A DNA stretch of 64,000 nt from Patescibacteria group bacterium (GTDB taxonomy: Bacteria; Patescibacteriota; Saccharimonadia; Saccharimonadales; UBA4665). Positions 189 to 41,893 of this stretch are shown piece after piece (the stretch's first letter is position 1; each line of letters begins with the position of its first letter). The position numbers and the translations under genes were made by a program. A model generated the notes under the pieces. The model made no database searches. It was not told where the DNA came from and saw only the letters and a list, made by a program, of their open reading frames with translations. The stretch lies in contig DATIIM010000019.1 of NCBI GenBank assembly GCA_035479615.1, positions 29,590 through 93,589 on the forward strand, read 5' to 3'.

Positions 189-3100
189 TTACGGCTTGAT
201 CTTAATGTCTCCTTGGCCGACGTCATCGGACATCTGGTAGAGTGGTGCCGCAGTGTTCGGGTCGGCATTTTGTGCGTAGATTTTGATTGCAAAGTGGTCG
301 GTGGTTGTGGGGTTGAACCGGTCGCCATCCAGGGCTGTAACCCGGAAGGTAACAGTTGTAGTCACTCCGTCGATAGTTAGCGTAGCCGTACCTTGGAAGA
401 TGCCCTCAGATTGGTTCGTGCCATCTACTACGAGCCAGGAAATGTTCGTGGCATCTAGTTTAAAGCTGTGACAGTTGACCGCTTGGTTAGGGTTGTTGCA
501 GTGCGTCCCGGTGGAGTAGTCCAGCCTAAGGTCACTGCCGGCAGCAACTACACCCTGGTTATTGTATTTGACGTTGAAGGCAAAGGTTGCTTTGTCGGTC
601 TGGTTGTTGCTTATTAAGCCAGGTAAGTTGTCGCCATTGGCGAGCAAAGGCACGAACGTCCGTTTGCCAGTGATACTGGCTCCGTTCGGGTCATAGACTA
701 CCAGGAAGTCGGTAACAACCGCACTCCAGTTGCCAGCGTTGTCTTTGGCGCGGACGTTGACCCGGTATACACCAGGCTGCAGCGTGGTGCCGAATGTTGT
801 GGTCAGGCTGCCGGAGCCCAGTGCCATAGCAGTGCCATTTCCGGCGCCGGGGTCTGTATCGCCCAAGAAGTATTCACCGCCGACTACTCCTGACAGGTTA
901 TCGCTCACGCCGACTGTTAGCAGTGAGGTCTGGCCGATAGCCTTGGGGTTTTGTGACCATGTTGGCGCAGTTGTAGCCGGGGCGGTGCTGTCGTATTTGA
1001 CCGTAACCGAGTGGCTGGCGGTGCCGCCAGTGCTCGTGGCGCTACAGGTGTAGGTCACTCCAGATGTGTCGGTCGAGATCGTAACCGTGTCGCAGCCTGT
1101 CTGGCTCGTTATGGCTGACTCAGGGTCGGTGACGCTCCAGGTGAGGGTTACCGGGCTATTGTTCCAACCGGCAGCATTGGGCTGTGAACTGAGGTTATAG
1201 CTAATTTGCGGAGCTGTAGTGTCGGCCGGGGCCGGTGGTTGCAGGAATACATACTGGACCATTTGTGAACCGGTTGCCGTAAGGCTTACCGTGACCGGAG
1301 TGTAGTTTTCGGGGTATATCTGGATGCTGTACGTAGCTCCAGGCAAAACGTATCCAGGGTATCCGCCTGAGAAGTAGCCATAAATGCTGCCTCCACCTGT
1401 CCAGTGCATTGTCGTGCCACCGCCGAGGTCAAAGGTGCCGGTAGTAATCTGGTTGGGTATGTATATGCCCGGCGTGCTGAGCGGCACGCCGTTCGGGTCA
1501 ATGACGTTGAATGTCAGCCGTGTTACAGGGATGTTAAACACCGGCGTATTAGTCTCAGTGAAGGTAATGAGCTGGTCGGTTTGGGCAGTGAAAGTGCTTG
1601 GCAGTTGGCTTGAGTACCCGCCGCCATTAGATGTGCAGTACATACCAATAAAGTTGCAGTTTAGCTGTACATAGTATTGGTATGTCTCGGGGTTTGGATT
1701 TTCGTTGTTGATCGTGAAGCTAAAGTTACCATTATCATCAACGGCGATATCTTGAACGACATTGCCACTGGCGTTGAGAAGCTTAACATTTGTCCCAAAG
1801 TAGCGGTTGCCCCCATGCTGGGCATCGCCGCCTAAGGGCTGACCGTCGATCTGCAACTGTCCGTGATACACGTGGTTGTACGTGACTGGTATGGGGTCGG
1901 TCAGGGTGACGGTTTGCGTCATTTGGCCGCCGGTCGCGGTCAAATGTACTGTTACGGGGAAGTATCCGTCGCCATAGACCTGTATGTCATAGGTGCCGCC
2001 TTCGATAACATACCCTGGGTACCCGCCGGAGTAGTATCCATATACACTCGTGCCGCCCGACCAATCCATGGTTATACCAGGTGCAACCTCAACAGTGCCC
2101 GAGGTTGCCTGGCTCGGTATGTATGCCCCAGTATTGGCGATAGGGTTACCATTCGGGTCAACGGTATTAAACGTCAGGTGAGTCACCGGAATCGCAAACG
2201 CCGCAGTGTCAGTTTCGTTAAACGTAACGAGCTGGTTCGTTGTTGCCGTAAATGGGCTTGGTAGTTTGTTGGAATAGCTCGTATTACCATCAGTGCAGTA
2301 CTGGTTAAAGTCGCAGACGATCTGGACGTAGTATTGGTAGGTTGCAGGATCGGGGTCACTCGTTGTCCGATTGAAACTAAAGTTACCGTTATCATCGACC
2401 GCAATACTATCTACTACATTGTGGTTCGCATCGAGGAGTCTTACGTTAGCCCCAAAATAGCGATTACCACCATGCTGTGCGTCGCCACTGAGCGGAGCGC
2501 CATTAATAGATAATGATCCGTGATACACGTGGTTGTAGGCAACAGGTACAGGGTCGGTAAGTACAACTGTCTGGGTCATTTGACTACCCGTTGCGGTCAG
2601 ATGTACCGTTACGGGATAATACCCATCGCCATACACTTGTATGTCGTATGGGCCGCCGGGAAGCACATACCCTGGGTAGCCTCCAGAGAAAAACCCATAG
2701 ACACTATCACCGCCCGACCAATCCATCGTAACGCCAGATGCAACCGTAAAGCTGCCAGTCACGGGTTGGTGTGGGATGTATGCCCCAGTATTGGCGATAG
2801 GGTTACCATTCGGGTCAACGGTATTAAACGTCAGGTGAGTCACGGGAATGTCGAAAGCCGGTGTGGTTGTCGTGGTAAACGTAACGAGCTGGTTCGTTGT
2901 TGCCGTGAAAGTGCTTGGCAGCTTGCTGGAATACCCTCCACCGCCATCAGTGCAGTACATATTAACGAAGTTGCAATTAACCTGGACGTAGTATTGATAT
3001 TCGGCAGGGGTGGGATCGGTAGTGCTGCGGGTGAAGCTAAAATTACCATTATCATCAACGGCAATGCTATCCACGGTATTGTGGTTCGTATCAAGCAGGG

Positions 3101-3584
3101 CGATGTTGGCCCCGAAGTACCGGTTGCCCCCATGCTGGGCATCACCGGCTAGTGGCGCGCCGTCTAGCGATAGCTTACCCTGGTAGGTGTGCGTGTAGTA
3201 AGTGGGTGTTGGATTGCTTGGAGCGAGGGTTACATTGACGACCTGGCTTGAGTTAAGATCGACGTTGGGCAAGTTAGACACCAAGAAATCACTGCCCGCG
3301 GGTGGTGTGACCCGTACATTATAGGTATTGGGCGGTATGGCGGTTACGACATAGTCGCCGGTGCTCCCTGTAGTGGCAGTAGCAACAACACTTGCTGTGT
3401 TGGTGTCGAGGACATCGACTGTTGCGCCAACGACTGCCGCCGAGGGTGTACCGCCGGTTACTTGGCCGCTGAGTTGCGAGTCAAGGGCAAAGGCTTTGCC
3501 CGGGTTTGCCAGTAATAGGAAACCAAACACAATGGGCAGGAACAGGAGTGCTTTTGCCCTAAAAAGTTTAGTGATGCGCTGCAT
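189..3584 (-). CDS. Large secreted/surface protein: signal peptide, carboxypeptidase-regulatory-like Ig domain, three ~219-aa repeats, Ig-like and beta-rich C-terminal domains
   Basis: The ORF track gives 189..3620. Preferred start is MQRITK at 3584 (purine-rich GGGGGGAAC upstream), followed by a hydrophobic segment and an AFA cleavage-like site. The motif GDAQHGGNRYFG and a Cys pair occur three times. Confidence 0.8.
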   Translation of the reverse strand: MQRITKLFRAKALLFLPIVFGFLLLANPGKAFALDSQLSGQVTGGTPSAAVVGATVDVLDTNTASVVATATTGSTGDYVVTAIPPNTYNVRVTPPAGSDFLVSNLPNVDLNSSQVVNVTLAPSNPTPTYYTHTYQGKLSLDGAPLAGDAQHGGNRYFGANIALLDTNHNTVDSIAVDDNGNFSFTRSTTDPTPAEYQYYVQVNCNFVNMYCTDGGGGYSSKLPSTFTATTNQLVTFTTTTTPAFDIPVTHLTFNTVDPNGNPIANTGAYIPHQPVTGSFTVASGVTMDWSGGDSVYGFFSGGYPGYVLPGGPYDIQVYGDGYYPVTVHLTATGSQMTQTVVLTDPVPVAYNHVYHGSLSINGAPLSGDAQHGGNRYFGANVRLLDANHNVVDSIAVDDNGNFSFNRTTSDPDPATYQYYVQIVCDFNQYCTDGNTSYSNKLPSPFTATTNQLVTFNETDTAAFAIPVTHLTFNTVDPNGNPIANTGAYIPSQATSGTVEVAPGITMDWSGGTSVYGYYSGGYPGYVIEGGTYDIQVYGDGYFPVTVHLTATGGQMTQTVTLTDPIPVTYNHVYHGQLQIDGQPLGGDAQHGGNRYFGTNVKLLNASGNVVQDIAVDDNGNFSFTINNENPNPETYQYYVQLNCNFIGMYCTSNGGGYSSQLPSTFTAQTDQLITFTETNTPVFNIPVTRLTFNVIDPNGVPLSTPGIYIPNQITTGTFDLGGGTTMHWTGGGSIYGYFSGGYPGYVLPGATYSIQIYPENYTPVTVSLTATGSQMVQYVFLQPPAPADTTAPQISYNLSSQPNAAGWNNSPVTLTWSVTDPESAITSQTGCDTVTISTDTSGVTYTCSATSTGGTASHSVTVKYDSTAPATTAPTWSQNPKAIGQTSLLTVGVSDNLSGVVGGEYFLGDTDPGAGNGTAMALGSGSLTTTFGTTLQPGVYRVNVRAKDNAGNWSAVVTDFLVVYDPNGASITGKRTFVPLLANGDNLPGLISNNQTDKATFAFNVKYNNQGVVAAGSDLRLDYSTGTHCNNPNQAVNCHSFKLDATNISWLVVDGTNQSEGIFQGTATLTIDGVTTTVTFRVTALDGDRFNPTTTDHFAIKIYAQNADPNTAAPLYQMSDDVGQGDIKIKP

Positions 3585-3605
3585 GTTCCCCCCTGAGATG
3601 TAAAG

Positions 3606-3650
3606 TGACTTATAAGTCAATAATAGGTAGCGCGTTGCAACTTAGTCAAT
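3606..3650 (-). promoter_or_regulatory. Putative sigma70-type promoter of the surface-protein gene with an overlapping 14-bp palindrome
   Basis: On the minus strand TTGACT (3645-3650) and TATTAT (3621-3626) are 18 nt apart. The perfect palindrome TGACTTATAAGTCA lies at 3606-3619. Confidence 0.45.
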
Positions 3651-3842: not shown

Positions 3843-4271
3843 ATGGGCCTCTTCAGTCATGACGACGACAAAAAAGACGAACAGGCAATGCCCGACCAGG
3901 GTGCAGCTCAAGCACCCGTAGACAATGGTGCTATGGGTGGTGCAGCAATGCCCGGTGCTGGTAGCGACGCTGCTGGCGGCGTACCTGGTGCAACCGATGC
4001 AGGTGCTCCTGCTCCTATGGGCGGTGCAGACGCTGGTGCAAGCCAGTGGAGCACAGGTCCTTCAGCTGGCGGTGCAGACGCTGGTGCTGGTGCAGGTGAT
4101 GCAGCGGCAGCCGGTGGCATGGCCGACGAATCAGCCGGTAGTGCTGCTGGTGAACCAACCATTCCTGCAGCTCCTGAAGCCCCGGCAGCCGGTGGCGACG
4201 CGCCTGCGGCAGGTGCTGATCCTGCAGCGGACCCCGCAGCTGGTGGCGGCGAAGAACCCAAGAAGTGGTAA
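3843..4271 (+). CDS. Low-complexity acidic Ala/Gly/Pro/Asp-rich protein, probably disordered
   Basis: 142-aa ORF with a strong SD (AAGGAGG) upstream and an intrinsic terminator downstream. A 20-bp direct repeat (4020-4039, 4068-4087) encodes GGADAGA twice. Confidence 0.75.
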   Translation: MGLFSHDDDKKDEQAMPDQGAAQAPVDNGAMGGAAMPGAGSDAAGGVPGATDAGAPAPMGGADAGASQWSTGPSAGGADAGAGAGDAAAAGGMADESAGSAAGEPTIPAAPEAPAAGGDAPAAGADPAADPAAGGGEEPKKW

Positions 4272-4359: not shown

Positions 4360-6249
4360 ATGAACGCACAAGACATACGAAACGCTTATTTAGATTTTTT
4401 CAAGAACCGTGGACACCGTGTGATTCCTCGTGCGCTTTTAGTGCCGCAGAATGACCCGACCACATTGTTTACCGGCTCCGGCATGCAGCCAATGATCCCG
4501 TACCTGTTGGGTGAGACACATCCGGAAGGCGCGCGCATTGTTGATAGCCAGACATGCCTGCGCGCCCAAGATATCGAAGAAGTTGGCGATAACCGCCACA
4601 CCACGTTTTTTGAGATGATCGGCAACTGGTCGCTTGGCGATTACTTCAAAGCTGAGCAAGTGGCGTGGATGTGGGAGTTTTTAACAGAGGTCGTCAAGCT
4701 CGACCCCAGCAAGCTCTACATTACTTGTTTTATCGGTGCTCCTGAATACGACATTCCAAAAGACACCGAAGCTGCCGAAATGTGGCAGAAACTGTTTGAA
4801 GCTAAGGGTCTCAGTTCTGGTGTCGCCGATATTGGCTCCGAGGAAGATGGCTACAAACGTGGTATTAACGACGGTGAGCGCATCTTCTATTACGACGGCA
4901 GCAAAAACTGGTGGAGCCGCAATGGCAACCCTGAAAAAACACCGGTGGGCGACCCCTGCGGCCCGGATAGCGAAATGTTCTACGACTTTGGCACACCGCA
5001 CAACCCAGAATACGGCGAACACTGCCACCCCAACTGTGACTGCGGCCGGTTCATGGAAATCGGCAACAACGTCTTTATGGCCTACCGCAAAGAAGCCGAA
5101 GGCAAGTTCGTACCGCTTGAAAAGCCAAACATCGACCACGGTTCTGGCCTGGAGCGCATTGCCGCCGCAGCCTTAGACGACCCAGACGTGTTCAAAATTA
5201 GCTTGCTGTGGCCAATTATCACCAAGCTGGAAGCTATTTCTGGCAAAACCTACGACAGCAACACCAACGCCATGCGCGTGATCGCCGACCACCTGCGCGC
5301 TGCCACATTCTTGGCTGTCGACGGCATCAAGCCAAGCAATAAAGAACAAGGTTACGTTATGCGCCGCCTGGTGCGCCGCGCGGTCCGTTTCGCGTTCGAC
5401 CTGGGCATTGAGCAGAACTTCTTGCAAGAGGTTGTCCCAGTCATCACCGGCATGTATGCCGCTGATTTCCCCGAAATTGTTGCCCAAAACGAAGAAGTTA
5501 TCGAAACACTGGTGCGCGAAGAAAAGGTCTTCCGCCAAACGCTCCGTAAGGGCATCCACGAAATGTCCAAGATGGCCGCCGGGGGCTTAACCGGTGAAGA
5601 AGTGTTCAAGTTGTATGACACTTACGGTTTCCCCGTAGAATTAAGCGTCGAAGAGGCCTTTACTCAGGGCATTGCCGTTGATGAACATTGGCGCGAGCAA
5701 TTCGAGACCAGGATGAAAGAACAGCGCGAGCGTTCACAAACTGCTACCAAAGGTACGTTTAAGGGCGGCTTGGGCGGTCAAACTGAACAGCACAAGAAGT
5801 ACCATACTGCCACGCACCTGATGTACCAGGCATTGCGCCAGGTATTGGGTGATCATGTCGTGCAGAACGGTTCCAACATCACCGAAGAGCGCCTGCGGTT
5901 TGACTTTAGCCACCCGCAAAAGGTGACCCCTGAAGAGATCAAACAAGTTGAAGACATTGTGAACGAACAGATCGGCAAAGATCTGAAAGTAAGCTGGGCC
6001 GAATACCCAACCAAGGTCGCCCGCGAAGAGATGGGTGCGCTCGGCCAGTTTGGCGACCGCTACGGCGACACAGTCAAAGTCTACAAAATGATCGCCGATG
6101 GCGCCGACAAACCATTTAGTTTTGAAATCTGTGGCGGCCCGCATGTTGACCACACCGGCCAACTTTCCGAAGATGGCAAGCACTTCAAGATCATAAAAGA
6201 AGAAGCTAGCTCCGCAGGCATCCGCCGCATCAAAGCAGTATTAGTTTAA
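4360..6249 (+). CDS. alaS: Alanine--tRNA ligase, lacking the C-Ala domain
   Basis: N-terminal DPTTLFTGSGMQP, GDNRHTTFFEMIGNWSLGDYFK, IDHGSGLERI, the editing-domain motifs HTATHL and CGGPHV, and a C-terminal SAGIRRIKA. 629 aa. Confidence 0.97.
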   Translation: MNAQDIRNAYLDFFKNRGHRVIPRALLVPQNDPTTLFTGSGMQPMIPYLLGETHPEGARIVDSQTCLRAQDIEEVGDNRHTTFFEMIGNWSLGDYFKAEQVAWMWEFLTEVVKLDPSKLYITCFIGAPEYDIPKDTEAAEMWQKLFEAKGLSSGVADIGSEEDGYKRGINDGERIFYYDGSKNWWSRNGNPEKTPVGDPCGPDSEMFYDFGTPHNPEYGEHCHPNCDCGRFMEIGNNVFMAYRKEAEGKFVPLEKPNIDHGSGLERIAAAALDDPDVFKISLLWPIITKLEAISGKTYDSNTNAMRVIADHLRAATFLAVDGIKPSNKEQGYVMRRLVRRAVRFAFDLGIEQNFLQEVVPVITGMYAADFPEIVAQNEEVIETLVREEKVFRQTLRKGIHEMSKMAAGGLTGEEVFKLYDTYGFPVELSVEEAFTQGIAVDEHWREQFETRMKEQRERSQTATKGTFKGGLGGQTEQHKKYHTATHLMYQALRQVLGDHVVQNGSNITEERLRFDFSHPQKVTPEEIKQVEDIVNEQIGKDLKVSWAEYPTKVAREEMGALGQFGDRYGDTVKVYKMIADGADKPFSFEICGGPHVDHTGQLSEDGKHFKIIKEEASSAGIRRIKAVLV

Positions 6250-6254
6250 GCCGC

Positions 6255-7364
6255 TCATATTTCGACAGTATCTGCCAGGCCAAGCTGCGCCAGGTAGCGT
6301 TGGAAGTTATCGGCAGCCAAGTGTAGCTGCTCGCCAGCGCGGAACAAATGTTCGCCCGCGTTGCCAAAGGCCGCCTGCAATCCCGCAGTTTGGTCACTCC
6401 CGTCGGTCGCGCTGGCGAGCGTGTCATTGGCCCTGCCAAACTGGTCAATGGTGGCTTGCAGAGTGGGGAAGGGCAGCGCGTCTATTACGCCTGCTACTTC
6501 CATGCCGACAGCTAATACACTGTTGGTTTCGTTGCTGGTCGCGCCGGCTGCGGGTGTAATTGTTGGTGCTGTGGGCCACTTAGGCGCGTAGCTGCGGACT
6601 TGGTTGGATATTTCGCCGGCTGTGGCTTCGGGGGCGAGGCCAAACATTTGTTCCATCTGGTTCATCCAAGGCATATATGTCGGGTCAAAGAACGATTCAT
6701 GCCCGTCGAATACAAATATCCCGCCGCTCACTAACCTTCCCAGAACGTTTGCCATAATGCGGTTCCGGGATTTTTCTGAACAGTGGTAAAGCAGATTGTT
6801 CATAAGAATTACATCATAGGGGCCGCCTGGCGGCGGGCCTTCAATGATGTCGTGTTCCATGAACCGTACATGTTCGTGGTAGGCCGCGTTGCCGCGCCAT
6901 CTGCCGGGCTCGGCGGGTTCAAACAGCGGGCGCAGCAACTCCCGCTGTTTCTCGTTCCCCAATTCGTTTTCGTAATATGTTGCCCGACGGGCCTGCCGAA
7001 TTGCATCAGGGTTAACGTCGTAGGCGTCGATGGAAAATGGTATCCCGTAACGGGTAAACCATGCGGCCATGGTTGCTGTTTCGTGGCCGGTAGAGCAGGC
7101 AATTTGCCCGACACGTAGCCGCTTACGCCCTAATTGCTGTTGGAGGGTGGGCGCCGTATCCCGCGCAAACACCTCCAGATTAGCGCTGCGGAAAGTGTTG
7201 GTGCGATCGGTAACGGGGTGCGCTCGGAAGCCTCTCACCAGGTCATCTATGGAATCGTCGGGACGCTGTGCCGCCCGCCAGGCGAGTTTTTCACGCCCCC
7301 GTGCGCCGTATAAATCTTCGGCCGCAGCGAGTGCTTTTTCCCAATCTTCAGCCGACCTGCTCAT
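6255..7364 (-). CDS. CheR-family SAM-dependent methyltransferase fused to a C-terminal helical module
   Basis: CheR-like motifs TNTFR, QIACSTGHE, DAYDVNPDAIRQAR, VRFMEHDI and YDVILMNNLLYH. Start is 7364 (MSRSAEDW) or 7391 (ORF track). Confidence 0.75.
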   Translation of the reverse strand: MSRSAEDWEKALAAAEDLYGARGREKLAWRAAQRPDDSIDDLVRGFRAHPVTDRTNTFRSANLEVFARDTAPTLQQQLGRKRLRVGQIACSTGHETATMAAWFTRYGIPFSIDAYDVNPDAIRQARRATYYENELGNEKQRELLRPLFEPAEPGRWRGNAAYHEHVRFMEHDIIEGPPPGGPYDVILMNNLLYHCSEKSRNRIMANVLGRLVSGGIFVFDGHESFFDPTYMPWMNQMEQMFGLAPEATAGEISNQVRSYAPKWPTAPTITPAAGATSNETNSVLAVGMEVAGVIDALPFPTLQATIDQFGRANDTLASATDGSDQTAGLQAAFGNAGEHLFRAGEQLHLAADNFQRYLAQLGLADTVEI

Positions 7365-8472
7365 GCGGCGCTCTGCTCCCGTCGTAGCCAATATCGGCTA
7401 GGTAATTATCAAAGTCGCTGGTGGCTTTATATAAAAGGTCTTCAATTGCCCGTAGCCGAGAGAAGGCCAGGTTGAGCGTACTGAATCGTTCGCGCAGATG
7501 GATATACCCCACGGTATCTTCCAGAATATCCCGGCTGGCCACTAGTTTGTCTTGTGCTGCTTGTATCTCCGGGAACGGTATCGAATTTACGGCGTCCAGT
7601 ACGCAGGCACCAATGTTGGCCACCGTGTTGCCGTCGGGTGCAATGGTGGCGCGTTCGGCAAGTGTGGATTGGACAGGCGTGGTGTAGGGTTTGGGCCGGT
7701 AACGCCGTATGGCATTGCCTGTATCTTGTTGTGAATCAAGCAGGGTCAGTCCAAAGCGGTGAGCCAGACCTCTTCTCCATGGTATGTAGGTTGGCTCCGC
7801 AATCGCAGCAACTGGCGGATCAAAAATCAGTACGCCATGTGCGGTATCGAGCGCCGCGAGTATATTGCTAAGCATGCGATCTCTGACAGGGTTGGCGTAA
7901 TGGAAAAACAAGTTTTTGGCTATCAGTACATCGTACGGGCCGCCTGGCAGTTGTTGCCTGCGTGCATCGTAATGGCTAAATGTCGCCCGGTCCCGAAGGG
8001 CGGCAACTGGTCTTATGTGGGTGGGGTCGACTTGTTCGAACAGGTGAGCCACGCCAAGTTTCTCGGCCCTTTCTTTTTGCACATTCCTGAAATTGGGGTA
8101 GACGGCTCGATCAGCGTCTGCCAATGAGCCTCGGTGGATATCAAAGCCGGCTATGGTGAAGTCGACCCCTGCCTTTTCTAGCAGCGCGGCTACTGTCCAT
8201 GTCTCTTCACCATCACTGCAGGCAATTTGCCCAATATTCAAACGCCGGCCGAGTGCTTCCTGTAAGTCTGGTGCTACCTCTGCTGCAAACACTTCTAAGT
8301 CGCTGGAACGGAAAAATGTAGTCGTGAGTGTGGTAGGTCGCTCAGCGGCTTGTTCTACAACCCAATCGGGCGGGGCGTCCGGATAGAAATGCTCATCGTA
8401 CATGAATTCCTTACGGCCCAGCTGGCTGAAATCACTATATATATCTCCCCATGTCGGGGCTGGCTCTGTCAT
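7348..8472 (-). CDS. Second CheR-family methyltransferase fused to a C-terminal helical module
   Basis: Motifs TTFFR, QIACSDGEETW, GFDIHRGSLADA and YDVLIAKNLFFHY. Likely start is MTEPAP at 8472, 7 nt downstream of TACAAT (8480-8485). The ORF track extends to 8553. Confidence 0.78.
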   Translation of the reverse strand: MTEPAPTWGDIYSDFSQLGRKEFMYDEHFYPDAPPDWVVEQAAERPTTLTTTFFRSSDLEVFAAEVAPDLQEALGRRLNIGQIACSDGEETWTVAALLEKAGVDFTIAGFDIHRGSLADADRAVYPNFRNVQKERAEKLGVAHLFEQVDPTHIRPVAALRDRATFSHYDARRQQLPGGPYDVLIAKNLFFHYANPVRDRMLSNILAALDTAHGVLIFDPPVAAIAEPTYIPWRRGLAHRFGLTLLDSQQDTGNAIRRYRPKPYTTPVQSTLAERATIAPDGNTVANIGACVLDAVNSIPFPEIQAAQDKLVASRDILEDTVGYIHLRERFSTLNLAFSRLRAIEDLLYKATSDFDNYLADIGYDGSRAPHEQVG

Positions 8473-8615
8473 GCACGCCATTGTAGCGTTTTTTGCAATT
8501 ATTTCCATATATGTTTTTGCTCGTCCTCTCTGGAGTGCAGTAAGGAAGTTCACAGCGAGTTAATATCACACTGCTATAATGCCTAGTCGCCAGGCCTTCG
8601 GGAGGTGGCCCCACA

Positions 8616-9581
8616 ATGAAACGGTACATAGCAGATGTTTTAGTACCTGCCTATAACGAAGAAGCGATGATCGGTAAGACATTGCGAAGCATCGCAAACC
8701 AGAAGATTGAGCCGGATTGGCATTTCCGGGTCCAAGTGATTACAAACGGTTGCACGGATGACACACGTAAGGTGGCCGAACGCACCATTGCCGAACTCCA
8801 ACACAATGAACACTTTGAGTTCGTGCTCCATTCCCTAGAACAGCCCAGTAAAATAAGAGCTTTGCAGTTCGGGCTAGACCGAGCGGATGCGCCGCTCATT
8901 TTTTGTATAGATGCCGACTCGATCGTGTCGAATAACTGTTTTGCCGCTACGCTGCGCGAATTCCAGAACCCGCATACCATGCTGGCCGGGCCGTTGCCAC
9001 AGGTAATCGTGCCTAAGGAACGCTGCAACACCAAGCTTGGGTACATACACCGTACGGCAAATGTATGCCGCCGCGCTTACGAAGTCATTAGCCCCGGCGG
9101 GGCAATGATTGGCTATCGCCGCGAAAATATGGATGGCTATCCAGAAGGCATCGCCTCGGACGACAGCTACGTGACATTTAAAATGGCCGAGCGTTTCGGT
9201 TGGGAATCTGTGCGGGTTCCCCGGGATGCCGTGGTGTATTGGATTGGCGCCCAAAACTGGGTAGATTACATTAAACAAGAGTCCCGTTTTGCCCGTGCTA
9301 CGGTGCAGCTGCTTGAACGATTCCCGGAATTTGCCACAGTACGGCAAACACAAAAAGAGATTGTCCGCTGGGAAGAGCGCAAAAAGCTCGTTACGGTTCG
9401 CTTTAAGCTCAAACGGGCGGGCATACCACTCGGCACCCTCGGATATCTGCGGTTCCTGCAGAAAGCATGCGCCGAGAACGCCGGCTTTATACCAGACCAA
9501 CTTATTGGCAGCGACGGGCGCTGGGAAACGATTCTCAGTACCAAACAAGCACCAGACTGCGACCCAGCACTACCTTGCTAG
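8616..9581 (+). CDS. Glycosyltransferase family 2 (GT-A fold)
   Basis: VLVPAYNEE, the DxD motif IDADS, SDDSY and QESRF. SD GGGAGG upstream and TGCTATAAT at 8572-8580. Confidence 0.85.
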   Translation: MKRYIADVLVPAYNEEAMIGKTLRSIANQKIEPDWHFRVQVITNGCTDDTRKVAERTIAELQHNEHFEFVLHSLEQPSKIRALQFGLDRADAPLIFCIDADSIVSNNCFAATLREFQNPHTMLAGPLPQVIVPKERCNTKLGYIHRTANVCRRAYEVISPGGAMIGYRRENMDGYPEGIASDDSYVTFKMAERFGWESVRVPRDAVVYWIGAQNWVDYIKQESRFARATVQLLERFPEFATVRQTQKEIVRWEERKKLVTVRFKLKRAGIPLGTLGYLRFLQKACAENAGFIPDQLIGSDGRWETILSTKQAPDCDPALPC

Positions 9582-9608: not shown

Positions 9609-10955
9609 ATGACGATTATGCTTGATAGGGTAAAAAACTCCGTACGCGGTATAGCCGGTAAGGTCGCTCAAAAAGCTACCGAGGTTAATACCAAAATGGC
9701 ACAGAAGAATCCGGCTGCTGATGAAGAGCGCTATATTGTCGCATTGGACGTTGGAACCGAATTCGTAAAGGCGCTTATTGGCAAAGTTGCCGGTGATCAA
9801 ATTGAGATCATTGGTGTCGGCCGGGCCCATCAAGGGCTCAGCGACATGCAAGCCGGGGCCATCGCCGATATTGCCGGGGTTGTAGAAAATTGTGACAAAG
9901 CCCTGGCCCAGGCCGAACAACAGGCCAACGTTAGCGTGCGCACCGCAGTAATTGGCATTGCCGGTGAACTCGTAAAGGGTACTACGACCACGGTGCGTGT
10001 CTCGCGCAAAGATGCTGGTAAGGCCCTAGACCTTGTAGAAATGCAGCGGATTATCAAACTCGTCCAACAGCGGGCCGAAGCCAAGGCTAAGCAGCAATTA
10101 GCCTGGGAATTAGGTGGCAAAGAAGTTGAAGTCAAGCTGGTGAACAGTGCCTTAGTTGGCATCGAAATTGACGGCTATAAAGTTACCAGCCCGATCGGGT
10201 TCCAGGGCAAAGAAGTCGTGGTGCAACTATACACCGCATTTGCGCCGCTGATCCACATTGGTGCGCTGGAGCGCACTGCCCAGCAATTAGACCTTGATCT
10301 GTTAGCTGTTGCAGCCGAACCGTTCGCCGTCGCCCGTTCAGTCATTGGCGATGACACATCGGCCAGCATGAACGCGGTGCTTATGGACATCGGCGGTGGC
10401 ACAACCGACATTGCGGTGATTACCGATGGCGGCGTGCAAGGCACCAAGATGTTTGGTATTGGCGGTCGGGCGTACACCCGGGCAGTGGAGCGCGATTTGA
10501 ACGTTGAATATGCACAAGCCGAAGCGCTTAAAGTAGGCCTGGCTACCGGCCGGGTGCCGCAAAACAAAGCGGCCAACGTCGAAGCGGCGCTAAAAAAGAC
10601 GCTCGATGTATGGATGAGCGGCATCGAACTGGCCTTGGGCGAATTCGACAAGCTCGACAACCTGCCACACAAACTACTGCTCTGCGGCGGCGGTTCCAGC
10701 CTTGATTTGCTCATGGATCGTTTAGAGAGCGGCAACTGGTATGCCGAACTGCCGTTTACCCGTAAGCCAAGCGTGCAACACATTAACCCGGACCAAGTGG
10801 TAGGTATTGTTGACAAAACAGGCGATGTAAACGACCATACATTCATAACCGCAATGGGTCTGCTCCGCGTAGGCCTGGATACGCTCCAGTTTTCGGTAAC
10901 ACCGGACAAGAGCGGATCACTGCGCGATAAATTAGACAAGGCCCTACGTGTATGA
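9609..10955 (+). CDS. FtsA-like actin-family ATPase (not adjacent to ftsZ)
   Basis: Phosphate-1 motif ALDVGTEFVK, LQAGAIAD-like QAGAIADI, phosphate-2 motif MDIGGGTTDIA, GIGGRAYT and LLCGGGS. The start may be 9618. Confidence 0.85.
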   Translation: MTIMLDRVKNSVRGIAGKVAQKATEVNTKMAQKNPAADEERYIVALDVGTEFVKALIGKVAGDQIEIIGVGRAHQGLSDMQAGAIADIAGVVENCDKALAQAEQQANVSVRTAVIGIAGELVKGTTTTVRVSRKDAGKALDLVEMQRIIKLVQQRAEAKAKQQLAWELGGKEVEVKLVNSALVGIEIDGYKVTSPIGFQGKEVVVQLYTAFAPLIHIGALERTAQQLDLDLLAVAAEPFAVARSVIGDDTSASMNAVLMDIGGGTTDIAVITDGGVQGTKMFGIGGRAYTRAVERDLNVEYAQAEALKVGLATGRVPQNKAANVEAALKKTLDVWMSGIELALGEFDKLDNLPHKLLLCGGGSSLDLLMDRLESGNWYAELPFTRKPSVQHINPDQVVGIVDKTGDVNDHTFITAMGLLRVGLDTLQFSVTPDKSGSLRDKLDKALRV

Positions 10956-16791: not shown

Positions 16792-18093
16792 ATGCCAGAG
16801 AATTACACAGTGTCCGGTACTCAGAGTTCGGTGGGAGCAGTAGTAGGTGAAGTCCAAGCCGCTTGCCAGGATTTACCCGTTGGCGAGCTTGCCGATGTAG
16901 CGCAGGAATTACAAGACGCGGCCGCGACAATATATGAGGTAGCCGGGGATGGGCAGGGCAGTGAAGTGGCAGCGATGATCTCGCAGGCAGGTGAACGGGC
17001 ATCGGCAGCAGCCGGTGCGTTGCTCGTGGCACAAGAGAACCTCACGGCGTACGCGGGGGCAATTACTGGGGCAGGCGGTGGCGATGCTCCGGCCGTACAC
17101 GAGGCTGCGCCTACCACTTCCTCCACTCCCTCCCAAGGCCTTGAATTTGGCCCCTACGCGCCAGTTATCATAGAGGAACGACGGATGGGTAACGTTCAGG
17201 TGAAGGCAGCGCTTGTGCGGCATTCACCAGAGAATGCTGCACTTATTGCCGGTGTGGTTCGCGACTGTGACGTTATTGTCATGGAGACTGCTGGCGCAGC
17301 TAACGCACAAGAACGACTGCAGCTAGAACAGTTATATACCACGCTCCTATCGAGTCAGGTGGACCCTGCAGCAATCCAGGAGTTTTTTGAAAAAAATGAA
17401 AAATCATTTCCGTTCGTTTTTCTTGCCAACCTTGTCGGCACCGACAAGCCAGTTCGGCTCATTGACATGGATGTCGATGACGCCGACTATCGCTTAGTCG
17501 AAGCATTTTCGGAAACGAGGAGGGAGCTCTTAAAGCTGGCTGACGACGTGGCGCCAGTAGATGAATTGCGCCAAGCGGCGCTCGTTGCCGTCGAGGCTGC
17601 ATATCACTCCCAAGTGGCTCGGAATGAGCGTATGCGTCGTGACTTGGCCAAGCTAGAACCGCAGTTGGGATACGCTAAAGTGGGATTGGTAATGGGAGCG
17701 TCGCACTACGAAGTTTTGGATGGCATGGCGCCTGCTGGCAAGCCATCGTCGCAGTCGATCCGGGATAGGGCATGGGCACAGCTCAACACATGGGACAAGG
17801 CTGATGCCCAACGGGCCGAGAAAGGCGCAGTTGACCCTGAACTTTTGGATCGGATGGTGCTGAGTGTACAAATAGGTATGCATACTGGCAAGAAGGAGGA
17901 AGGTGAGCATTTAGCGCACGTACTGACCGACGAAGGGGTTGCTTTCGTGCTCCGCAATCTTGACGATATAGCACATGAGCCGGGCCGGAACAGAGTCGAA
18001 AAGGCATTTATCGCCAAGGTGTACTTACAGAGGATAGTAGATACTTTTCCACTGCCAGCACGTGGGTTTGTGATGCCGATCGATACAGTGTAG
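16792..18093 (+). CDS. Hypothetical protein: N-terminal helical module + linker + EreA/ChaN/TIKI-like domain
   Basis: 433-aa ORF. The order of motifs VRH, DVIVME, LIDMD, ARNERM and VMGASH matches the EreA/ChaN/TIKI superfamily. TATAAT lies just upstream. Confidence 0.6.
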   Translation: MPENYTVSGTQSSVGAVVGEVQAACQDLPVGELADVAQELQDAAATIYEVAGDGQGSEVAAMISQAGERASAAAGALLVAQENLTAYAGAITGAGGGDAPAVHEAAPTTSSTPSQGLEFGPYAPVIIEERRMGNVQVKAALVRHSPENAALIAGVVRDCDVIVMETAGAANAQERLQLEQLYTTLLSSQVDPAAIQEFFEKNEKSFPFVFLANLVGTDKPVRLIDMDVDDADYRLVEAFSETRRELLKLADDVAPVDELRQAALVAVEAAYHSQVARNERMRRDLAKLEPQLGYAKVGLVMGASHYEVLDGMAPAGKPSSQSIRDRAWAQLNTWDKADAQRAEKGAVDPELLDRMVLSVQIGMHTGKKEEGEHLAHVLTDEGVAFVLRNLDDIAHEPGRNRVEKAFIAKVYLQRIVDTFPLPARGFVMPIDTV

Positions 18094-18135
18094 TTGTAAT
18101 TGACAAAAGTAACCATAAGTGGTATACTGTGATCT

Positions 18136-18528
18136 ATGAGTGATTTTTTGATGGAACGTTCGGCAATTGGCCAGGCCATGAATCAGGTTCCTGGGCAGCT
18201 GCCTGAATTACGCCCGACAGTGCCGGAACTGCGTATGGCACGCGACTTCCCGAATGACAGCCCGCTGGTGCGGGAATGGGTTGGGGCAGGTGAGGGTACT
18301 ATTGTATTCGATACCCCAACAGAGGAACATGCTGCTGACCCCGCTTGGCGCGAGGGCCGCATTGTTGACCCTAATGGTGAAGCTACGGCTACGTTTGCCT
18401 ACCGTGCCGAAATGCCGGGCCGTGGTTCGGAAGTCTTTTTCCGGGCGCTTGGCTGGTTTATTGGCGAGCAACTGCCGGTCCGCGGTTGGTTAGCTGGCCG
18501 GGCCAACCCTGTCCGCAAAACCTCTTAA
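18136..18528 (+). CDS. Hypothetical protein
   Basis: 130-aa ORF filling the gap before sbcB; TATACT lies 7 nt before the ATG. Confidence 0.6.
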   Translation: MSDFLMERSAIGQAMNQVPGQLPELRPTVPELRMARDFPNDSPLVREWVGAGEGTIVFDTPTEEHAADPAWREGRIVDPNGEATATFAYRAEMPGRGSEVFFRALGWFIGEQLPVRGWLAGRANPVRKTS

Positions 18529-18563
18529 GGTGTAAGCAATAAATGGTACACTGGTAGCTACGT

Positions 18564-20006
18564 ATGGCTACCAGTTTTTTCTTTTATGACCTTGAAACGA
18601 GCGGCTTTAGCCCGCGCTCGCACCGCATTATGCAGTTTGCCGGGCAGCGGACAGACTTAGAACTGAACCCGATTGGCGAGCCGGTCGACATCTTAATTAA
18701 AATGACCGACGACAATTTGCCGGATGTTGACGCCGTGCTATTAACCGGCATTACGCCACAGCAAACGATTATGGACGGCGTAACCGAAGCAGAATTTTTG
18801 CGGACATTTACCGACGAAGTTGCCACGCCGGGCACGGTGTTTGTGGGCTTTAACACGATCCGGTTCGACGACGAATTTATGCGCACGCTGCATTACCGCA
18901 ACTTTTACGATGCCTACGAATGGCAGTGGCAGGACAACCGCGGTAAGTGGGACATGCTCGACGTGGTGCGCATGACGCGCGCCCTGCGCCCGGATGGCAT
19001 TGAGTGGCCGTTCGACGCCAAAGGCAACCCAACCAACCGTTTGGAACTGCTCACGGCGCTTAACAAACTGGATCACGAACACGCCCACGACGCCCTCAGC
19101 GACGTTGACGCCACAATTAGCGTGGCACGTTTGATCCGCAACAAGCAAACTAAGCTTTTCGACTACCTGTTTACCATGCGGGACAAAAAGAAGCTGGCTG
19201 AACTCGTCGAATCCAATGAGCCGTTTGTGTATACCAGCGGCAAGTACCCGTCTGAACACGAAAAGACCACGGTTGCCGTGCAATTGTGCGCCCAACCAGA
19301 GCGCAGCGGCGGCGTGCTAGTGTACGATTTGCGCCACGACCCAAATGACTGGATCACTAAAACGCCGGAGCAGCTTGCCGAAGCCTGGCGCTGGAAGAAA
19401 GACAATACCGACCCGCGGTTGCCGGTCAAGGCAATGCAGTACAACCATTGCCCGGCAGTGGCGCCGCTGGGTGTTCTGGATGCTGCCAGCCAAAAACGGC
19501 TGCAAATTGACCCGGCAACGATCCGTAAACACTATGAAACACTTAAGCAAGCTACAGGCTTTGTGGATGCTGTGTGCAAGGCTTTGGAGATCAACAACAA
19601 GCAGCGCCAAACTAGTTTGGTGAGCACTGAAAGCGACGTCGACAGCGCCCTGTATGAAGGGTTCTTTGGCCCGGAAGACAAACGGGCGATGAGCGTGGTG
19701 CGGGCCGCCGCGCCTCAAGAACTTGGCGGCTTGGGTTTGAAGTTCCGCGACCAGCGGCTGGAGGCATTACTGCCGCTTTACAAAGCCCGCAATTATCCCA
19801 AGCTATTAACCAGCGAAGAACGCGAAGAATGGGAACGATTCCGCATTAGTCGCTTGGCTACGGGCGGCACGGGCAGCCAATTGGCCAAGTACTTCGCGCG
19901 CCTGCAAGACGTTATCGCCAAGGGCGGTCTGACTGGCCACCAAGAGTATTTAGTTGAAGAATTACGGCTGTATGCCGAGAGCATCATGCCGGAGCCGGAA
20001 GTTTAG
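18564..20006 (+). CDS. sbcB: Exodeoxyribonuclease I
   Basis: DEDDh motifs FYDLETSG, GFNTIRFDDEF and HAHDALSDV; LLPLYKARNYP. Confidence 0.95.
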   Translation: MATSFFFYDLETSGFSPRSHRIMQFAGQRTDLELNPIGEPVDILIKMTDDNLPDVDAVLLTGITPQQTIMDGVTEAEFLRTFTDEVATPGTVFVGFNTIRFDDEFMRTLHYRNFYDAYEWQWQDNRGKWDMLDVVRMTRALRPDGIEWPFDAKGNPTNRLELLTALNKLDHEHAHDALSDVDATISVARLIRNKQTKLFDYLFTMRDKKKLAELVESNEPFVYTSGKYPSEHEKTTVAVQLCAQPERSGGVLVYDLRHDPNDWITKTPEQLAEAWRWKKDNTDPRLPVKAMQYNHCPAVAPLGVLDAASQKRLQIDPATIRKHYETLKQATGFVDAVCKALEINNKQRQTSLVSTESDVDSALYEGFFGPEDKRAMSVVRAAAPQELGGLGLKFRDQRLEALLPLYKARNYPKLLTSEEREEWERFRISRLATGGTGSQLAKYFARLQDVIAKGGLTGHQEYLVEELRLYAESIMPEPEV

Positions 20007-20007
20007 T

Positions 20008-20565
20008 ATGCGCGTAACTCTAGCTGCTGTTATTTCGCTGGATGGCCGGGCCACGCGGGGCGACGATCCGAACAACCACGCCTGGTCTTCGACCGAGGAC
20101 TGGCACCATTTTATGGAACTCCGCGACCTGTCTGACGCTGTTATTATCGACCGTCTGACGTACGAAACCGTTAAGCCAGAGCCGGAAGCTGCACGGCTCC
20201 GCGTTGTTCTAACCAACCACCCAGGGTTGTACGCTGGCAAAGAAGTACCCAACCAGCTAGAGTTCACCGGCGGGAAGCCCACAACCTTACTCAAGAATTT
20301 ACAGCAGCGCGGCAAACAACGAGTGCTGGTTGCTGGCAACAATGCCTTGCTGCACAGCTTTTTGGCAGCTGGGGTAGTTGACGATTTGTACCTGTCGTTT
20401 GAACCGGTGTTGTTTGGGTCGGGCGAGCCGCTCATTGAAGCACCGCAGACGCTGAACGTCCAACTACAGCTACAAAGTGTCAAGGAATTGAACAAGCAGG
20501 GCACGCTGCTGGCACACTATATCGTGGCGAATACAGGCACGAACACCAGCCAGCCTAGCGCTTAG
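20008..20565 (+). CDS. Dihydrofolate reductase / RibD C-terminal-domain family protein (copy 1)
   Basis: MRVTLAAVISLDG...FLAAGVVDDLYLSFEPVLFGSG. The ATG at 20008 directly follows the sbcB stop; the ORF-track extension overlaps sbcB. Confidence 0.8.
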   Translation: MRVTLAAVISLDGRATRGDDPNNHAWSSTEDWHHFMELRDLSDAVIIDRLTYETVKPEPEAARLRVVLTNHPGLYAGKEVPNQLEFTGGKPTTLLKNLQQRGKQRVLVAGNNALLHSFLAAGVVDDLYLSFEPVLFGSGEPLIEAPQTLNVQLQLQSVKELNKQGTLLAHYIVANTGTNTSQPSA

Positions 20566-20839
20566 CGCCAGGTTTGAACTTCAAGACGAATGCACGCCAC
20601 TTTTTGAGGCCAGCCTTGGCGCCAGTTTTTACCAGGGCGATCAGCCAGTCGCGGACTTTTTCAGCAAAAGCGAACTCAGTAGCCAGAATGGCAAAGCCTA
20701 AGAAAATTGCCGCCCAACCTGGGCCAGGCAGAATCAGCATTGCCAAGCCGGTGAGGATCACGGCTGAACCAATAACCAAAATGAGCGGCTTACGAACAGC
20801 TGCGGGGACCCGTTTCCAGTGTTTAGGCAAATTGCGCAT
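20555..20839 (-). CDS. PGPGW-motif small membrane protein
   Basis: GLAMLILPGPGWAAIFLGFAILATEF, with two hydrophobic segments. Confidence 0.85.
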   Translation of the reverse strand: MRNLPKHWKRVPAAVRKPLILVIGSAVILTGLAMLILPGPGWAAIFLGFAILATEFAFAEKVRDWLIALVKTGAKAGLKKWRAFVLKFKPGAKR

Positions 20840-20909
20840 GCAGGCATTATCGCATCATTCTGGCCAGCACGCTACCGGCCAGGCCAGCGGGATGCTAGAG
20901 TATATGCAG

Positions 20910-21437
20910 ATGAAAGTAGCGATTATTGCCATGGTGTCGGCCGATGGCCGGTTAACCCGCGGCACAGAGACCAATATCCATGCCTGGCGTTCGCCAGAAG
21001 AAGGGGCGATGTTTACCAAGCTACTCGGCCAGCACGAAGTGGTAATCGTCGGCCGCAAAGGGTATGAAGCTGCAGGCAGGCCAAAGCCCCGTGAAGGCCG
21101 GCTGTACGCAGTTATGACCCGCCATCCAGAGCGCTTCAAGGAGCTGACTGTGCCAGACCACTTGGAGTTTATGGATGATTCGCCGCACGACTTAATGCAA
21201 AACCTGCAAAAGCGCGGCTATCATTCCGCGGCAATCACGACCGGCGGTGACTTGAATAACGACTTTTTGGCCGCTGGCGTGGTGGATGAATTGTATTTGA
21301 CCATTGAGCCGTACATGTTTGGTGCGGGCGGCGATTTGGCTGGTACTAAAGCGCTGAACGTCAGTCTGACATTGCTCGATGTGCAGCAGCTAAACGACCG
21401 CGGCACACTGCTGGCACACTACAAACTGGGGCGCTAA
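20910..21437 (+). CDS. Dihydrofolate reductase / RibD C-terminal-domain family protein (copy 2)
   Basis: MKVAIIAMVSADG...GRKGYE...GGDLNNDFLAAGVVDELYLTIEPYMFGAG. Start is 20910 or 20904. Confidence 0.82.
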   Translation: MKVAIIAMVSADGRLTRGTETNIHAWRSPEEGAMFTKLLGQHEVVIVGRKGYEAAGRPKPREGRLYAVMTRHPERFKELTVPDHLEFMDDSPHDLMQNLQKRGYHSAAITTGGDLNNDFLAAGVVDELYLTIEPYMFGAGGDLAGTKALNVSLTLLDVQQLNDRGTLLAHYKLGR

Positions 21438-21438
21438 C

Positions 21439-21468
21439 TTGACAGACCACAGCACATGCCAGTACGCT
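21439..21468 (+). promoter_or_regulatory. Sigma70-type promoter for the transporter/ligase operon
   Basis: TTGACA (21439-21444), 18-nt spacer, TACGCT (21463-21468). Confidence 0.6.
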
Positions 21469-21488
21469 ACCTCAAAAGGAACACCGCT

Positions 21489-21551
21489 ATGTTGATAAAC
21501 AAGCACGTCACTACCTGGTCCGGATTCGTTGAGCGCAGCTCCCTTTGCTGA
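21489..21551 (+). CDS. Putative 20-aa leader peptide MLINKHVTTWSGFVERSSLC
   Basis: Manual translation. AAGGA (21476-21480) lies 8 nt upstream of the ATG. It sits in the leader of the VUT transporter gene. Confidence 0.4.
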   Translation: MLINKHVTTWSGFVERSSLC

Positions 21552-21586
21552 ACGTTTTCTAACCATACATAATATTTGAGGTAGTC

Positions 21587-41209: not shown

Positions 41210-41893
41210 CTAGGTGCCTTCTAGATAACGGCGCAGGGCGTTGATAGCTACACCCAGCTGAAAGAGTGCATTCTCTGCATGTTGTTCCGCCCGGATAACG
41301 TGGGCTTGCATTTGCTGGCTGGCGGCATGGGAAGAGCCGTCCAGGGTGGCAGACATACTTTGTATGGCACCGGTGAGTAAGCCAATAGCCCCAGAAGGCT
41401 CGGCTGTCTCTAGGTCGTCAGTGATCGGTTTAATCACTTTTTTTATGTCAGCTATCGCTTTTTGGCCTGGGTTGGCATCGGGGTTAGCCGGTGTGGCAGT
41501 TTCTGTGCCTGTAGCGGGTTTGCGGCGCTCATACAAAGATTCGCGGGCCCGTTGGAAAGCCCGCAGCAGATTGTCTGTTTGCATACAGCTGCCGTGAATT
41601 TCAAAGGCACCTTCGGTTAGGAGTGGAGGTAGACCAGCTTTTGGTTGGGTAAGTAAGAATGAATAATTGCATGCGCCCCCATATTTCTCGCACCAGAAAA
41701 CTGTTGTCGGGCCGTCCGGTCCTTCGGTTGTTGCGCTGGGGATTTGCCCGTCCATTATCTGGTGCACGAGCGGGGAATCTGGGTAGACTTGGTCCCCAAG
41801 ATCCATCGCAACCCCGGATAAAATTTCACGCATAATTTGAGCGCAGGTGTCAGAAGTCTCGATTGGGCGTGGGGCAAAGTCAGGGACAGCCAT
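41210..41893 (-). CDS. Hypothetical protein: unknown N-terminal domain + linker + C-terminal helical module
   Basis: 227-aa ORF with TATAAT upstream; C-terminus ...LDGSSH...AEQHAENALFQLGVAINALRRYLEGT. Confidence 0.65.
   Translation of the reverse strand: MAVPDFAPRPIETSDTCAQIMREILSGVAMDLGDQVYPDSPLVHQIMDGQIPSATTEGPDGPTTVFWCEKYGGACNYSFLLTQPKAGLPPLLTEGAFEIHGSCMQTDNLLRAFQRARESLYERRKPATGTETATPANPDANPGQKAIADIKKVIKPITDDLETAEPSGAIGLLTGAIQSMSATLDGSSHAASQQMQAHVIRAEQHAENALFQLGVAINALRRYLEGT

Follow-up and report, generated by a model that had tools for sequence, protein, structure and literature searches.

Why would a bacterium whose genome encodes no chemoreceptors keep two adjacent genes for enzymes of the CheR type, and on what might these enzymes act? 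The question is raised by a tandem pair of genes, here called A and B, in a 64,000-nucleotide stretch ("the window") of contig DATIIM010000019.1 from the Saccharimonadales assembly GCA_035479615.1 (positions 29,590 to 93,589, forward strand). A preliminary description of the window had read the pair as CheR-type methyltransferases that lack a chemotaxis context and have been repurposed for a host protein or another substrate. We find that A and B are CheR-fold enzymes with an intact S-adenosylmethionine (SAM) site, that they are not canonical CheR enzymes, and that the module at their C-termini is a portable terminal tag common to about 47 otherwise unrelated soluble proteins, a lineage-specific set. 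The reading that we favour, at roughly an even chance, is that A and B are active protein methyltransferases carried as cargo by a lineage-specific, tag-based system of sorting or export.

A tandem pair of CheR-like genes

The source genome (G000; G001 and so on denote related genomes, and L-numbers denote individual loci) belongs to Candidatus Saccharimonadales and comprises 1.27 Mb in 25 contigs, with an estimated completeness of 98.96%. The pair lies on its minus strand:

7348..8472, minus strand: CheR-like methyltransferase B, 374 aa from the ATG at 8472, the upstream member of the pair
6255..7364, minus strand: CheR-like methyltransferase A, 369 aa from the ATG at 7364
8480..8507, minus strand: promoter-like TGGAAA-16-TACAAT, ending 7 nt ahead of the B ATG, a leaderless-type start

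The earlier view of two neighbouring, diverged paralogs is borne out, since both open reading frames (ORFs) are intact and the proteins are 33% identical across 356 residues, the C-terminal part included (E 3e-55), a similarity that cannot have arisen by chance. Longer forms of both can be read, A from a TTG at 7391 (378 aa) and B from a GTG at 8553 (401 aa), and the residue numbers given below for Pfam and module hidden Markov model (HMM) matches refer to these longest ORFs. At the junction, the start codon of A lies 17 nt within the 3' end of B, an overlap that makes it probable that the two genes are co-transcribed and translationally coupled. The promoter-like element is the sole sigma-70-like site of the region, and it is weak evidence, as the count of such sites is no higher than in shuffled sequences.

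CheR-fold enzymes with an intact SAM site and altered catalytic positions

Both proteins exceed the gathering cut-off of the Pfam CheR domain PF01739 (27 bits), A with 75.8 bits (E 4e-21) and B with 63.3 bits (E 2.6e-17), over the following segments:

7828..8322, minus strand: CheR SAM-binding domain of B including the beta-subdomain (PF01739 over residues 78-242 of the 401-aa ORF)
6687..7202, minus strand: CheR SAM-binding domain of A including the beta-subdomain (PF01739 over residues 64-235 of the 378-aa ORF)

When the PDB was searched with the family profile, CheR structures were the only entries found at E 1e-26 to 1e-20 (5FTW, 5XLY, 1BC5 and 1AF7). An AlphaFold 2 model of A, with a mean predicted local distance difference test score (pLDDT) of 83 and a core above 90, keeps the beta-subdomain (strands 129-131, 148-152 and 155-158). 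In a Foldseek search with this model, the top ten matches were all CheR, at E 1e-13 to 1e-10 and with TM-scores, normalised by target length, of 0.60-0.82; generic class I methyltransferases began near E 1e-6. The assignment of the pair to the CheR type in the preliminary description is thus upheld by the domain scores of both proteins and, for A, by a predicted structure that matches CheR ahead of non-CheR methyltransferase folds.

CheR itself (PF03705 plus PF01739; 1AF7, 1BC5, 5FTW, 5XLX) provides the best sequence and structure matches to the pair, with which it shares the SAM-binding fold, its inserted beta-subdomain and the SAM-contact motifs TxxTxFFR, GxE, Asp and Asn. Both A and B keep the Arg of the FFR motif, the Glu of GxE, the ribose-binding Asp and the Asn; in A these are R59, E95, D116 and N190, which, like the matching residues of B, do not vary within the family and correspond to Arg98, Glu129, Asp154 and Asn231 of the Salmonella enzyme. 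The preliminary description had the catalytic motif conserved as well, and here it fails. The RNVxIYF motif of CheR is replaced by NNLLYHC in A and KNLFFHY in B (family pattern N-N-x-L-[YW]-H-Y), so that the position of Tyr235 is occupied by His and that of Arg230 by Asn in A and by Lys in B; the numbering of Arg230, Asn231 and Tyr235 was checked on the 1BC5 chain in the profile alignment. In Salmonella CheR, Tyr235 is the proposed catalytic residue.

Further departures concern the parts of CheR that meet the receptor. Neither protein matched the N-terminal domain PF03705 in Pfam even at E<=1, and in the AlphaFold 2 model of A the N-domain is cut down to just two helices before the FFR motif. 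The basic alpha2 helix of CheR contacts the methylation helices of the receptor; the segment aligned with it is acidic or neutral in the pair and has no Lys/Arg cluster (A EKALAAAEDLYGARG; B WGDIYSDFSQLG). A pentapeptide pocket marks only the pentapeptide-dependent subclass of CheR, and many genuine CheRs are without one. In the beta-subdomain of the pair, the R-G-x-G stretch appears to be replaced by acidic or Pro residues (FEPAEPGRW in A). Among the residues that line the pocket (Q182, R187, G188, G190, G194 and R197; PMC2577667), R187, G188 and G190 do not appear conserved in A and B by profile alignment, the alignment of this loop being uncertain.

These substitutions bear on whether A and B still act on proteins at all. 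Under a lesser rival reading, their descent from CheR would be a matter of ancestry only, and they would methylate a small molecule, a lipid, a nucleic acid or a cell-wall component, with the His serving N-, O- or S-methylation chemistry. The conservation of the Tyr235-to-His and Arg230-to-Asn changes across the clade would suit this idea, as would weak NCBIfam and PADLOC matches that span the generic Rossmann part and point to methyltransferases of the OvoA type, RquA and mad2. We nonetheless regard it as improbable, because the beta-subdomain specific to CheR survives, as does part of the N-domain (pLDDT >90), and because in the Foldseek search CheR (E 1e-13) stands seven orders apart from small-molecule methyltransferases (E 1e-6). 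To our knowledge, moreover, all characterised CheR-fold enzymes act on proteins.

A clade apart from canonical CheR and from chemoreceptors

An exhaustive HMMER search over 1.84 billion representatives gave 8,700 CheR-like matches, 13 of them at E <= 1e-30. Word-indexed homologue searches started from A, from the family alignment and from a module-bearing protein recovered nearly only the query itself, and no relative was confirmed when genome contigs were scanned with a profile of the A+B alignment. In a tree of 175 CheR-type domains, a non-canonical clade of 77 rows was split from 98 canonical CheR with a support of 95, and A and B fell outside canonical CheR, within a 12-row subclade of the former. 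The position of Tyr235 follows this division, being His in 54 of the 77 non-canonical rows and Tyr in 87 of the 98 canonical ones.

The tandem arrangement is itself old. The order ftsA-like / CheR / CheR / alaS recurs at loci L016 and L017/L018, and in the tree B clusters with the ftsA-proximal copies of related loci while L016b clusters with L017b, which implies that the duplication predates these lineages and that both copies have been retained. Elsewhere, the gap between alaS and the ftsA-like gene holds one module-bearing CheR-like copy (L099/L100) or single short CheR-like copies (L101, L023, L020 and L123); for the clade as a whole, this variable gap is the usual location.

The source genome carries a third CheR-like gene (C25:8973-9749; L003:1048-1824, minus strand), which encodes a protein of 258 aa with a weaker match and no C-terminal module. 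It is very divergent (branch length 2.1), has Tyr at the Tyr235 position, and adjoins an ABC-2 permease and an EamA-type transporter.

If A and B served chemotaxis, their receptors should be encoded elsewhere in the genome. Domain searches for MCPsignal (PF00015), the signalling domain of methyl-accepting chemotaxis proteins (MCPs), for CheW (PF01584) and for CheB_methylest (PF01339) found none in the source genome and were positive in control genomes; the CheW search also covers CheA, which carries a CheW domain. What had been noted for the window, that it holds no MCP, cheA, cheB or cheW gene, therefore extends to the genome; flagellar genes, named in the same statement, lay outside the genome-wide search.

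Unexpectedly, MCP genes are present in six congeneric species, where CheW and a CheA-like gene adjoin them (L115-L120; G020:C5:~239000-243500, G021:C22:~17500-22100, G017:C30, G006:C5, G015:C1 and G012:C8; MCPsignal 113-119 bits, CheW 110-120 bits). Four of these six congeners have no CheR domain at all, and the other two have weak, non-canonical CheR domains only, on other contigs. This is a chemosensory system that lacks methylation-based adaptation, in an epibiont lineage, and it is maybe tied to type IV pili. The CheR-like clade, for its part, occurs in 11 of 60 other related genomes and coincides with the MCP-bearing set in just two. As its occurrence is independent of MCP, the clade does not serve the receptors of these congeners. 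This distinct His-type clade in Saccharimonadales, MCP-independent even within one genus, is the first new element of the locus, and our literature search on CheR in Saccharibacteria and the candidate phyla radiation returned nothing relevant on the epibiont side.

The same distribution makes it unlikely that A and B are decaying relics of a lost chemosensory system. The persistence of MCP-CheW-CheA clusters in six congeners is what such a history could leave behind, but those congeners are mostly without any CheR. In addition, both ORFs are intact with their SAM motifs conserved, the pair is an old duplication kept in related contigs, and the clade is distinct from canonical CheR, with A and B having gained a new domain; we therefore give decay next to no credence. 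With chemosensory genes absent, a separate clade, altered sites and an occurrence independent of MCP, CheW and CheA, the earlier proposal that these enzymes were repurposed away from chemotaxis is sustained.

CheR folds at work outside classical chemotaxis have precedents in the orphan and kinase-linked homologues of MAC systems and cfc-type cassettes, which presumably act on other helical protein substrates. Such homologues adjoin their presumed substrate, kinases or coiled-coil proteins, and often a CheB. A and B, in contrast, have no such neighbour and no CheB in their genome, and they carry a tag common to dozens of proteins.

A portable terminal tag

Behind the methyltransferase domain, where canonical CheR has no counterpart, each protein has a P/T-rich linker (A PKWPTAPTITPAAGATSNETNS; B PKPYTTPVQSTLAERATIAPDGNT), predicted with low confidence in the AlphaFold 2 model, and a C-terminal module of about 85 aa:

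6525..6584, minus strand: P/T-rich flexible linker of A, residues 261-280 (pLDDT 52-56)
6279..6521, minus strand: C-terminal three-helix module of A (module HMM, residues 293-373 of the ORF)
7387..7626, minus strand: C-terminal three-helix module of B (module HMM, residues 312-391 of the ORF)

Modelled with AlphaFold 2 from a 34-sequence alignment, the module of A forms three helices at pLDDT 93. The preliminary description had recorded both linker and helical module, correctly, and had taken them to stand in place of a receptor-tethering region. This second part does not hold, because tethering in CheR is the role of the beta-subdomain, which is still present in A and B.

An HMM built from six CheR C-termini matched about 30 further ORFs in the source genome, and 47-52 after iteration. 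Of 47 such proteins, 28 bear the module at the very N-terminal end and 19 at the very C-terminal end; it stands nowhere else, and none of the 47 has a transmembrane-like hydrophobic stretch. N-terminal modules typically begin MSS[IV]E, and the consensus runs S-[VI]-E ... L-P..E-L ... G-S ... Y-[LIV]-x-x-[IL]-G. The cargo parts fall into 38 mutually unrelated clusters, among them a double NUDIX protein, a ResIII/DEAD helicase of 841 aa, a DUF6829+DUF1152 protein and many without an assigned family. A search with the 34-module alignment returned 46 matches in the source genome, 39 in its congener G001 and, at the same threshold, none in 59 other relatives, so the signal is specific and is no coiled-coil noise.

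Two more members of the family lie within the window:

16792..18093, plus strand: module-family protein of 433 aa, N-terminal module at residues ~13-92
41210..41893, minus strand: module-family protein of 227 aa, module at the C-terminus (G000:C19:70802-71053)

The cargo of the first had no match in Pfam, NCBIfam, PHROGs or PADLOC. The module gave no consistent match in Pfam, whether full proteins or 34 isolated modules were used, and nothing in NCBIfam or PHROGs. A profile search of the PDB yielded coiled-coil noise only, with ESAT-6 at E 0.09 among it; a Foldseek search with the pLDDT-93 model found nothing below E 1; and WXG100 matched 1 of the 34 isolated modules, at E 0.088.

We also considered the modules as methyl-accepting helices in their own right and rejected this, since the MCP methylation consensus ([ASTG][ASTG]xx[EQ][EQ]xx[ASTG][ASTG]) occurs in just two of the 34, at different positions.

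In G001, a gene at L012:1375-2400 (minus strand; G001:C3) encodes a CheR-like domain with a weak module match (17.6 bits, E 1e-4) at its N-terminus, the opposite arrangement to that of A and B. This diverged module ends in ...LLTAWGV and not in YLxxIG. Here, tag and CheR-like domain may have been joined a second time, independently. The second new element of the locus is the fusion, perhaps recurrent if this weak match is taken at face value, of a CheR-like enzyme to a tag not described before, by which a candidate effector repertoire is defined.

That the tag is common to some 47 unrelated proteins makes it probable that A and B are sorted or exported and methylate another protein, and adds plausibility to an extracellular action or one on a host protein. 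The chief rival keeps the enzymes inside the producer: the module would serve for docking or oligomerisation, gathering its bearers on one cytoplasmic scaffold or on each other, and A and B would methylate proteins of the epibiont itself, such as those of division, pili or signalling. A module placed at either terminus and on large cargo (the 841-aa helicase, the double NUDIX protein) would be at home in such an arrangement, and neither a secretion signal nor a known family of secretion substrates was matched. We rate this rival as doubtful, yet ahead of the others. Thirty-eight unrelated cargoes expanded in one sub-lineage, with none in 59 relatives, form the pattern of an effector repertoire and not of housekeeping.

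An extra FtsK/SpoIIIE ATPase as a candidate machine

A further point against intracellular docking is that the tag family is accompanied by an additional EccC-like ATPase. Beyond its housekeeping FtsK, the source genome encodes an FtsK/SpoIIIE ATPase of 847 aa (C3:49907-52450, outside the window), whose full-length homologues among 61 genomes are confined to the source genome, G001 (39% identity) and G015 (29%). Its best NCBIfam matches are to EccCa of the type VII secretion system (T7SS; 79.8 bits), EssC and EccCb, with FtsK and VirB4 ranking below these, and two tagged genes are no more than 6 kb away. As the machine that reads the tag, this ATPase is suggestive only.

In the surrounding region (C3:44046-56438; L104, L108), the ATPase is flanked by a 755-aa protein and four all-helical proteins of 166-211 aa, and there are two Cys-rich proteins with a C-terminal module; the genes are interleaved with rpoB/rpoC, rpsL/rpsG and fusA. 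The four small helical proteins showed no significant membership in the module family, and the neighbours of the ATPase matched no family and no PADLOC defence family.

Weak PADLOC matches of A to mad2 (31.8 bits) and of the ATPase to mad8 (68.5 bits) raised the question of an anti-phage MADS-type system. This we rejected: the two genes are on different contigs, B has no match, only generic domains are involved, and the neighbours of the ATPase have no matches.

Where A and B might act

On the reading that we favour, the tag would hand its cargo to a shared, lineage-specific machine. The likeliest such machine would be a signal-peptide-independent export or translocation system driven by the EccC-like FtsK/SpoIIIE ATPase; Saccharibacteria's essential type IV secretion system (T4SS) would be the alternative route. 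A and B would then methylate a protein other than a chemoreceptor, outside the producer's cytoplasm and possibly in or on the host bacterium. Judged from sequence, catalytic activity, a protein substrate and a role of the tag in sorting or export are all inferred parts of this picture, and a host protein would be a plausible target.

T7SS substrates (WXG100, LXG toxins and PE/PPE) offer the closest parallel. They likewise join a small helical terminal domain to variable cargo and lack a signal peptide, and they likewise form gene arrays expanded in one lineage that co-occur with an FtsK/SpoIIIE ATPase, here one nearest EccCa, EssC and EccCb. The T4SS of Saccharibacteria is a secretion machine whose protein substrates have not been named (PMC12857230, PMC12102498). 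C-terminal signals are common among T4SS substrates, a likeness to A and B; unlike the tag family, however, which only 2 of 61 related genomes possess, the T4SS occurs widely across the phylum.

Several observations weigh against export by a T7SS-like machine. The tag has no significant likeness to WXG100, to LXG or to any Pfam or PDB entry; it lacks WxG, its Y-h-x-x-h-G ending differs from the YxxxD/E signal of T7SS substrates, and proteins carry it at the C-terminus too, not just at the N-terminus. The ATPase scores far under the EccC/EssC cut-offs (79.8 against 509 bits) and lacks a membrane segment, and the genome yielded no further core component of a T7SS. G015 has an ATPase of this type, yet zero module matches. 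The co-occurrence of tag and ATPase amounts to two related genomes and possibly to one evolutionary event. An either-terminus tag on cargo as large as the 841-aa helicase also fits an intracellular docking or assembly domain, and the T4SS could be the route instead, or export may not occur. We found no literature report of a T7SS or of WXG100 in Patescibacteria or Saccharibacteria on the epibiont side.

In the most specific version of the export reading, which we hold to be unlikely, A and B are effectors translocated into or onto the host bacterium, together with about 45 other tagged enzymes, by a T7SS-like, tag-recognising machine peculiar to this Saccharimonadales sub-lineage, and there methylate host proteins. 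If true, no protein-methylating effector acting between bacteria, and no effector repertoire of a patescibacterial epibiont, would have been defined earlier.

For the study of how ultrasmall epibiotic Patescibacteria manipulate their hosts, the locus provides a concrete handle: a CheR fold freed from chemotaxis, with a changed active-site residue, that has been fused to a portable tag once and possibly twice. In two species, an entire set of candidate effectors bears this tag, and if it is a sorting signal, the effector repertoire becomes definable from sequence alone. If host proteins are methylated, this would be new chemistry in interbacterial antagonism or parasitism. Even the modest reading leaves a distinct CheR-like clade of the His type that acts on something other than a chemoreceptor.

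The variable gap between alaS and the ftsA-like gene

The pair occupies a gap bounded by two conserved genes, which it shares with a glycosyltransferase gene:

4360..6249, plus strand: alanyl-tRNA synthetase (alaS; Pfam), left edge of the variable gap that holds the pair
8616..9581, plus strand: GT2 glycosyltransferase, further cargo of the gap, with the pair on one side and the ftsA-like gene on the other
9609..10955, plus strand: ftsA-like gene (Pfam and synteny), right edge of the variable gap

Relatives of the ftsA-like gene are 68-92% identical and come nearly all from metagenome-assembled genomes of Candidatus Saccharimonadales or Saccharibacteria, many of them soil-derived. Persistent adjacency of the CheR-like family to this ftsA-like operon would suit enzymes that work inside the producer, such as the docking alternative supposes. 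The gap, however, proved to be an accessory-gene hotspot across Saccharimonadales. The synteny of alaS and the ftsA-like gene with a variable gap between them is found at about 70 of 80 loci (L019-L098), and across the 80 the two genes are adjacent or 0.3-6.4 kb apart (extremes 35 bp and 6.4 kb). The gap cargo comprises dozens of unrelated families, of which the CheR-like one is a minority; elsewhere it includes a recurrent protein of 370-380 aa without an assigned family, a PQ-loop protein, an ABC exporter and a GNAT. Adjacency to the ftsA-like gene hence need not imply a functional link and looks like an effect of the hotspot. A functional link to the ftsA-like operon, which we had considered as a candidate explanation, was set aside, weakened by the many unrelated genes in the same gap of other genomes.

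The GT2 gene is present at this gap in the source genome only, and not at the related loci L016, L017 and L099. Immediately upstream of alaS lies a low-complexity ORF of 142 aa (3843-4271, plus strand), rich in Ala, Gly, Pro and Asp. Beyond it, a probable surface protein of 1143 aa is encoded (189-3620, minus strand), with CarboxypepD_reg, Big_6 and SpaA-like Ig-fold repeats.

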